From NCBI RefSeq assembly GCF_003334785.1, contig NZ_QOWV01000075.1: DNA of 698 bases; one strand, given 5' to 3'. The notes below the pieces were generated by a model. That model was not told the DNA's origin. It saw nothing but the letters and a program-made list of their open reading frames with translations, and did not search any database. This DNA is from Escherichia coli (GTDB lineage: Bacteria > Pseudomonadota > Gammaproteobacteria > Enterobacterales > Enterobacteriaceae). Positions 1-697 of this stretch are shown here, piece by piece (the stretch's first letter is position 1; each line of letters begins with the position of its first letter). A program made the position numbers and the translations under genes.

Positions 1-1
1 T

Positions 2-667
2 CACCCGGAGCAACACCTCCGCCCCTTCCGGGGTATCCTGCAGGCGGATGCGTTCACAGGTTACGACAGGTTGTTCAGTGCAGAACGTGAAGGTGGTGCA
101 CTGACAGAAGTTGCGTGCTGGGCCCATGCCCGGCGAAAAATCCACGATGTATACATCAGCAGCAAAAGTGCGACGGCAGAAGAAGCCCTGAAGCGAATCA
201 GTGAACTGTACGCCATCGAGGATGAAATACGGGGATTACCGGAGTCAGAGCGTCTTGCCGTCAGGCAGCAGCGAAGCAAAGTGTTACTGACGTCGCTGCA
301 TGAATGGATGGTGGAGAAGAATGGTACGCTGTCGAAAAAATCCAGACTGGGCGAAGCGTTCAGCTATGTACTGAATCAGTGGGATGCCCTCTGTTATTAC
401 AGTGATGACGGTCTGGCGGAGGCGGATAATAATGCTGCGGAAAGAGCGCTTCGTGCAGTCTGTCTCGGAAAGAAAAACTTTATGTTCTTTGGCAGCGATC
501 ACGGCGGCGAGCGTGGAGCACTGTTGTACGGGCTGATCGGCACCTGCCGTCTGAACGGTATCGATCCGGAAGCGTATCTGCGCCATATCCTGAGCGTACT
601 GCCGGAATGGCCTTCCAACCGAGTTGATGAACTCCTGCCATGGAACGTAGTACTCACCAATAAATAA
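2..667 (+). CDS. IS66-family transposase (TnpC/Orf3-like), C-terminal ~221 aa; 5'-partial, true start lies upstream of the window
   Basis: The frame of nt 2 has no stop from 2 to 664 and ends at TAA 665-667. Translating 2-70 gives HPEQHLRPFRGILQADAFTGYDR, which runs straight into the track ORF 71..667. Recognised IS66 transposase motifs are GILQADAFTGYD, ACWAHARRK (nt 113-139), DNNAAERALR and the C-terminal tail GIDPEAYLRHILSVLPEWP...LLPWN. The track's start at 71 is a TTG inside the longer open frame, with no convincing Shine-Dalgarno at the right spacing, so it is not the real start. Confidence 0.9.
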   Translation, partial: HPEQHLRPFRGILQADAFTGYDRLFSAEREGGALTEVACWAHARRKIHDVYISSKSATAEEALKRISELYAIEDEIRGLPESERLAVRQQRSKVLLTSLHEWMVEKNGTLSKKSRLGEAFSYVLNQWDALCYYSDDGLAEADNNAAERALRAVCLGKKNFMFFGSDHGGERGALLYGLIGTCRLNGIDPEAYLRHILSVLPEWPSNRVDELLPWNVVLTNK

Positions 668-696
668 GCGTCAATACGGTGCTCCGTTGACGCTTA
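665..696. repeat. Perfect 10-bp inverted repeat (potential stem-loop) spanning the transposase stop codon and the IS terminus
   Basis: TAAGCGTCAA at 665-674 is the exact reverse complement of TTGACGCTTA at 687-696, separated by a 12-nt spacer (TACGGTGCTCCG) that contains a nested 3-bp CGG/CCG mini-palindrome. No U-tract follows (the window ends ...CC), so it is not a canonical intrinsic terminator. Confidence 0.8.
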
Positions 697-697
697 C
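668..697. repeat. Putative right terminal inverted repeat (IRR) of the IS66-family element
   Basis: Read from the right end inward, the reverse complement of 668-697 is GTAAGCGTCAACGGAGCACCGTATTGACGC, starting with the GTAAGCG/GTAA signature I recall for IS66-family termini. It sits immediately downstream of the transposase stop, which is the usual position. The exact extent is uncertain without the left end. Confidence 0.55.

Follow-up and report, generated by a model that had tools for sequence, protein, structure and literature searches.

The right end of the insertion sequence ISEc23 (IS66 family), most likely in a truncated copy, in a 698-bp stretch of Escherichia coli DNA

Content of the window and identity with ISEc23

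The window, i.e. the whole stretch of 698 bases analysed here, contains an open frame (frame 2) that runs from position 2, where it is open at the left edge, to a TAA stop codon at 665-667; the stop is followed by a 30-base tail ending ...GTTGACGCTTAC at 697, and a final C occupies position 698. The 221-residue translation of this frame is recognised by the IS66 transposase models of Pfam and NCBIfam: PF03050 (DDE_Tnp_IS66) with an E-value of 3.3e-52 over model positions 118-283 of 284, PF13817 (DDE_Tnp_IS66_C) with an E-value of 2.3e-16, and NF033517 (IS66 family transposase) with 221.6 bits, above its curated cut-off of 180, though the fragment is only 221 aa long. Window 2-664 encodes residues 317-537 of the 537-residue transposase TnpC, identical to WP_000080195.1 as translated from a complete copy of the element (L003), and the window keeps the 3' 41% of the gene. 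The features are as follows.

1, no strand: single T, most likely outside ISEc23; equals the last unique base of a 109-bp end fragment of ISEc38 (ISL3 family) in NZ_AP022179.1 and NZ_CP069544.1
2-3, no strand: CA dinucleotide common to ISEc38 and ISEc23 at the breakpoint, a 2-bp microhomology (junction alignment)
2-697, plus strand: 3' segment of ISEc23, element positions 1837-2532 (100% identity to ISEc23-annotated copies)
2-667, plus strand: 3' part of tnpC, codons 317-537 and the TAA stop at 665-667 (translation identity, family models)
2-511, plus strand: DDE_Tnp_IS66 match (PF03050, Pfam)
533-643, plus strand: DDE_Tnp_IS66_C match (PF13817, Pfam)
665-696, plus strand: perfect 10-bp inverted repeat TAAGCGTCAA / TTGACGCTTA (665-674 and 687-696) with a 12-nt spacer, in which the element tip pairs with the tnpC stop region
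674-697, minus strand: right terminal inverted repeat (IRR), inward reading GTAAGCGTCAACGGAGCACCGTAT (20 of 24 bases shared with the left repeat, IRL, GTAAGCGTAAACTGACCGCCGTAT)
691-697, minus strand: GTAAGCG-type IS66 terminus (comparison of copies)
698, no strand: first flanking target base, which in NZ_AP022179.1 is the first of CCGCATCC... inside an ISEc8-family tnpC (copy comparison)

In the TnpC fragment, the aspartate of LQADAFTGY (GAT, window 47-49) is presumably the second catalytic Asp, and the glutamate of NNAAERALR (GAA, window 440-442) is taken by us to be the catalytic Glu; the motif CWAHARR begins at window 116. The DDTPV motif, which we presume to hold the first catalytic Asp, lies upstream of the window and is absent from it, as are the N-terminal coiled-coil and zinc-finger regions. 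A PDB sequence search with full-length TnpC returned no solved structure of a relative. Antisense open frames in the window, such as one of 100 aa on the minus strand at 284-586, were put down to the coding frame as its by-products.

Over window 2-697 there is 100% identity with the 3'-terminal 696 bp of ISEc23, element positions 1837-2532 of 2532. A megablast search of 5,426 complete E. coli genomes matched 6,233 records from 4,605 genomes, and many of the 100%-identical copies are annotated by RefSeq/PGAP as "IS66-like element ISEc23 family transposase". In PLSDB, 2,115 plasmid records matched, with Escherichia foremost, followed by Klebsiella, Shigella and Salmonella. The ISfinder naming convention asks for about 95% or more identity to the reference element; the name ISEc23 is taken here from the RefSeq/PGAP annotation of identical copies as a proxy for that reference, and the window is 100% identical to the copies so named. 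Papers in the literature that name ISEc23 merely list it.

Members of the IS66 family carry imperfect terminal inverted repeats of about 20-30 bp that start 5'-GTAAGCG. The element shows the marks of the family: a DDE transposase (TnpC) scoring above the family-profile cut-off; imperfect inverted repeats of about 24 bp with GTAAGCG tips, the right one in the window and the left one in complete copies; an 8-bp target-site duplication around most complete copies (see below), the window's own copy having no left end; and the genes tnpA, tnpB and tnpC in all complete copies fetched, a three-gene layout that extends outside the window. These definitions are reportedly those of Gourbeyre et al. 2010 and of Han et al. 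2001 (J Bacteriol 183:4296), the latter said to be a functional characterisation of the IS66 family. The earlier note on this DNA, made from the sequence alone, had read it as the right end of an IS66-family element, comprising a transposase C-terminus and a GTAAGCG-type terminus, and as routine mobile-element content. All of this holds, and the 100% identity together with the IS66 profile matches specifies the element as ISEc23, which is present in most complete E. coli genomes.

The same terminus occurs in several close relatives, so that an origin from another named IS66-family element (ISEc47, ISEc22, ISEc8, ISEc43 or IS679) had to be weighed. ISEc47 comes closest: in the last 300 bp, identity to its annotated copies is about 94-95%, and its terminal 57 bp, including the 665-696 hairpin, are the same. 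ISEc47 diverges farther upstream, however, and the window reaches 100% only against ISEc23-annotated copies, compared with at most 94.7% against those annotated as ISEc47. The ISEc8/IS679 group has the three-gene layout, the GTAAGCG-tipped inverted repeats and the 8-bp duplications in common with ISEc23, and its TnpC contains identical Pfam and NCBIfam domains, but the group is a separate element whose end is clearly different from that of the window: the inner parts of the inverted repeats read GTAAGCGTACAGCGAGGG... versus GTAAGCGTCAACGGAGCA..., and the ISEc8-family end has no terminal hairpin of the kind found in ISEc23. We therefore regard an element other than ISEc23 as extremely unlikely. 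The window resembles canonical ISEc23 in its TnpC C-terminus, its IRR and its end point relative to the 8-bp target duplications; it differs in that the window copy probably has no element positions 1-1836 and carries a fused ISEc38 fragment instead.

Position 187 of the window is polymorphic among ISEc23 copies. It is C in the window and in L002, L003, L004, L012 and L013, and A in five other complete copies (L007-L011); the two states mark two ISEc23 sub-lineages, matching the protein accessions WP_000080195 versus WP_000080200/193.

The right boundary of the element

The last bases of the element are CGCTTAC, the reverse complement of GTAAGCG, at window 691-697. In 698 bases, counting both strands, about 0.08 chance occurrences of a given 7-mer are expected; the motif on its own therefore proves little, and the boundary rests on a comparison of copies. 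The IRL of complete copies, GTAAGCGTAAACTGACCGCCGTAT, shares 20 of its outermost 24 bases with the IRR, and the IRR can thus be assigned to window 674-697. The IRL is the matching left inverted repeat whose absence, according to the earlier note, would have spoken against an element end here.

For an unbiased sample of copies, we searched with window 398-697 and drew hits from across the ranking; the seven complete copies thus obtained, together with three found earlier, make ten. All ten are 2531-2532 bp long, run from GTAAGCGTAAACTG... to ...GTTGACGCTTAC and contain tnpA, tnpB and tnpC. Similarity among them ends exactly after CGCTTAC. At the position that corresponds to window 698, the ten copies have C, C, G, C, A, T, A, G, C and A, respectively. 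Perfect 8-bp direct repeats abut both ends in eight of the ten, and all eight target duplications are different (CATGAATG, CGTATATT, GGAGCAGA, CTTTTTCC, ATATGTCC, GAGACAGC, CCTCTTTC and AAATGGCT). The flanks are unrelated, being traD, quuD, plasmid backbone, a Klebsiella plasmid and others. Because base 698 varies and the 8-bp repeats begin directly after CGCTTAC, the right boundary of ISEc23 is at 697/698, the junction that had been proposed along with the 8-bp duplications typical of the family.

The opposite view, that the CGCTTAC/GTAAGCG motif is internal or coincidental and the element runs on past the window, can draw on the weakness of the 7-mer as evidence and on the best 20 BLAST matches, all of which reach base 698. 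The latter is a ranking artefact, since copies with C at that position score one base higher than the others; base 698 as part of the element was accordingly rejected. With A, T, G or C as the next base in the unbiased sample, 8-bp repeats starting at that base and unrelated flanks, there is next to no chance that the element continues.

Two complete copies, both 2532 bp, have no matching repeats: the flanking 8-mers agree at 2 of 8 positions in L009 (CP088651.1) and at 4 of 8 in L010 (NZ_CP043265.1). Unmatched flanks are to be expected once an IS has mediated rearrangements, and in these two copies they suggest that recombination between copies, or deletion of adjacent DNA, followed the insertion.

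The tip of the element can also fold, at 665-696, into a hairpin with an RNA folding energy of -17 kcal/mol (z -2.87). The hairpin lacks a T-run, and a terminator scan found no intrinsic terminator in the window. As a selected structure the hairpin was rejected: only elements that are nearly identical overall share it, and in the more distant IS66 relatives (L016, L017 and the ISEc8-family end) the pairing is lost, with no compensating substitutions. The inverted repeat is probably incidental; what is conserved in this region is the sequence CGTCAATACGG, probably the inner IR. A permissive Rfam scan of the window gave nothing above a gathering score; its hit to snoTBR17 (E 0.41), at 15.7 bits where the gathering score is 40, was dismissed as a chance match. 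A promoter scan of the window found one promoter-like site, at 405-433, no more than in shuffled controls.

The left edge and its ISEc38 junction

Among the 5,426 complete E. coli genomes, megablast finds a match to all 698 bases in a single record, the plasmid pWP7-S17-ESBL-04_2 (NZ_AP022179.1; locus L001). There, PGAP calls the ISEc23 transposase CDS partial, with its N-terminus missing. The earlier note had expected tnpA, tnpB and the left inverted repeat within about 2 kb upstream. They are found in the complete copies, but the DNA upstream of the ISEc23 piece in NZ_AP022179.1 contains none of the three; it consists of a 109-bp end of ISEc38 and a fimbrial usher/chaperone operon. The missing left repeat at this locus does not count against the element boundaries, because intact copies elsewhere define both ends.

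The first base of the window is T, and the corresponding base is A in all ten complete ISEc23 copies. The ISEc38 piece is the terminal 109 bp of that element, beginning at its inverted repeat TGGCTCTTCCGCAA... and running to window base 3, and identity with ISEc23 begins at window base 2, with the CA dinucleotide as the overlap. At the breakpoint, ISEc38 reads ...CATCTTCA/GGCG, ISEc23 reads ...GGGGAAA/CACCCGG, and L001 reads ...CATCTTCACCCGG. Upstream of the junction the ISEc38 sequence is ...GGCGTTTCAGCATCT / ...TGGCGTTTCAGCATCT, and canonical ISEc23 upstream of the equivalent of the window is ...CGGCAGGGGAA / ...AACCGGCAGGGGAA. The ISEc38/ISEc23 junction with T occurs in two records in each collection, NZ_AP022179.1 and NZ_CP069544.1 (L005). 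A synthetic 120-mer representing ISEc23 read-through with T had no perfect match among the 3,117 spanning records from the 5,426 complete E. coli genomes; its best match was 99.2%, i.e. one mismatch.

These data bear on whether the window comes from an intact, potentially active ISEc23 copy that acquired the T at base 1 by a private point mutation (K316N, AAA to AAT). Window 2-697 is identical to intact copies, and a one-base difference is weak evidence of a junction. Against this stand the absence of T from the ten complete copies and from any read-through in the 5,426 complete genomes, and the existence of a T-bearing ISEc38 junction, with one record that has it matching all 698 bases. The T is thus better explained by ISEc38 than by point mutation, and an intact copy appears unlikely, though with a real residual chance. 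The copy in the window is most likely a 5'-truncated remnant starting at window 2-4, to which the window would be tied by the single base at position 1 and one full-length database match. Taking the parts together, we assign a probability of about 0.85 to the reading that window 2-697 is the right-hand 696 bp of ISEc23, that base 698 is target DNA, and that the copy is most likely a dead remnant. The copy at NZ_AP022179.1, having no IRL, tnpA or tnpB, is not autonomous, which applies to the window if it derives from that or an equivalent locus.

Two further observations concern these loci. In NZ_CP069544.1 (L005 3705-3710), a complete ISEc22 (IS66 family) is inserted in the ISEc38/ISEc23 remnant at about window 645-649, just 5' of the tnpC stop. 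In L001, the first part of a short open frame, with a signal-peptide-like sequence (MNKTLAILLFSVSFSAYADINLY), occupies 3828-3894 and is interrupted at 3895 by the terminal repeat of ISEc38.

The insertion target, proposed history and significance

In NZ_AP022179.1, the IRR abuts CCGCATCCCGTCAGC..., which is internal tnpC sequence of an ISEc8-family IS66 element; the stretch downstream of the junction reads CCGCATCCCGTCAGCACTGACGG.... This fragment (L001 4699-5237, 539 bp) shares 99% identity with ISEc8-family copies and extends to a ...GTACGCTTAC terminus (CGCTTAC) of its own. Downstream of it lie a resolvase gene fragment and then eatA. The DNA beyond 698 is indeed an insertion target, as the earlier note had put it; its further suggestion that a disrupted gene or a driven neighbour might show up at the junction does not hold at this locus, since ISEc23 went into another insertion sequence, where it neither breaks a functional gene nor brings one under IS control. 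The ISEc8-family fragment ends inside a truncated resolvase (recombinase family) gene (L001 5238-5510) upstream of eatA, an extra layer of the mosaic.

Another plasmid, p14EC017c (L004), carries an independent complete ISEc23, flanked by the duplication GGAGCAGA, in the same orientation and 30 bp further along the same ISEc8-family gene. The two insertions into ISEc8-family tnpC (L001 4698-4740, junction CCGCATCC...; L004 1146-1165 / 3697-3710) may reflect a preference for related elements, or chance.

We propose the following history. Intact ISEc23 is a three-gene element (tnpA-tnpB-tnpC) whose DDE transposase TnpC, with TnpA and TnpB as accessory proteins, would act on the two GTAAGCG-tipped inverted repeats. 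A staggered cut of 8 bp at integration would give rise to the 8-bp direct repeats; the repeats are observed, and the chemistry is extrapolated from the family. As for the order of events, we infer that an ISEc23 copy first inserted into the ISEc8-family tnpC, and that a later rearrangement removed its left 1836 bp (IRL, tnpA, tnpB and tnpC codons 1-316). This rearrangement would have joined ISEc23 position 1837 to an internal point of ISEc38, 109 bp from the ISEc38 end, via the CA microhomology. Since neither side of the join is an IS terminus, deletion or illegitimate recombination, and not transposition, is the presumed cause. What remains would be a scar in an IS mosaic on an ETEC-type plasmid, with the fimbrial operon on one side and eatA on the other.

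Having a single inverted repeat and a TnpC fragment devoid of the N-terminal DNA-binding regions and the first Asp, the remnant would be neither mobile nor a source of transposase; judged from its sequence, it should be immobile and, in effect, non-coding. It is very unlikely that the remnant is not inert, either through a C-terminal TnpC fragment acting as a trans-dominant inhibitor or through a -35 box in the IRR that makes hybrid promoters. For the former, an internal start such as the TTG at window 71 (198-aa ORF) could give a C-terminal fragment inhibiting full-length IS66-family transposases in the same cell. As to the latter, TTGACG at window 687-692 within the IRR is an outward-facing, -35-like hexamer that could form a hybrid promoter given a suitably spaced -10 in the target; the bases at the right spacing in L001 (AGCACT) are not -10-like.

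To place the window at the right end of an IS66-family element is correct; the finding is routine and known, and implies no new biology. The base-accurate right boundary of ISEc23 is useful for masking and for the annotation of IS junctions. The copy itself would be a scar in an IS mosaic beside virulence genes of ETEC, namely eatA and a fimbrial operon of CS type; mosaics of this kind preserve a record of the way in which virulence plasmids came together, and further rearrangements can use the homology that they offer.
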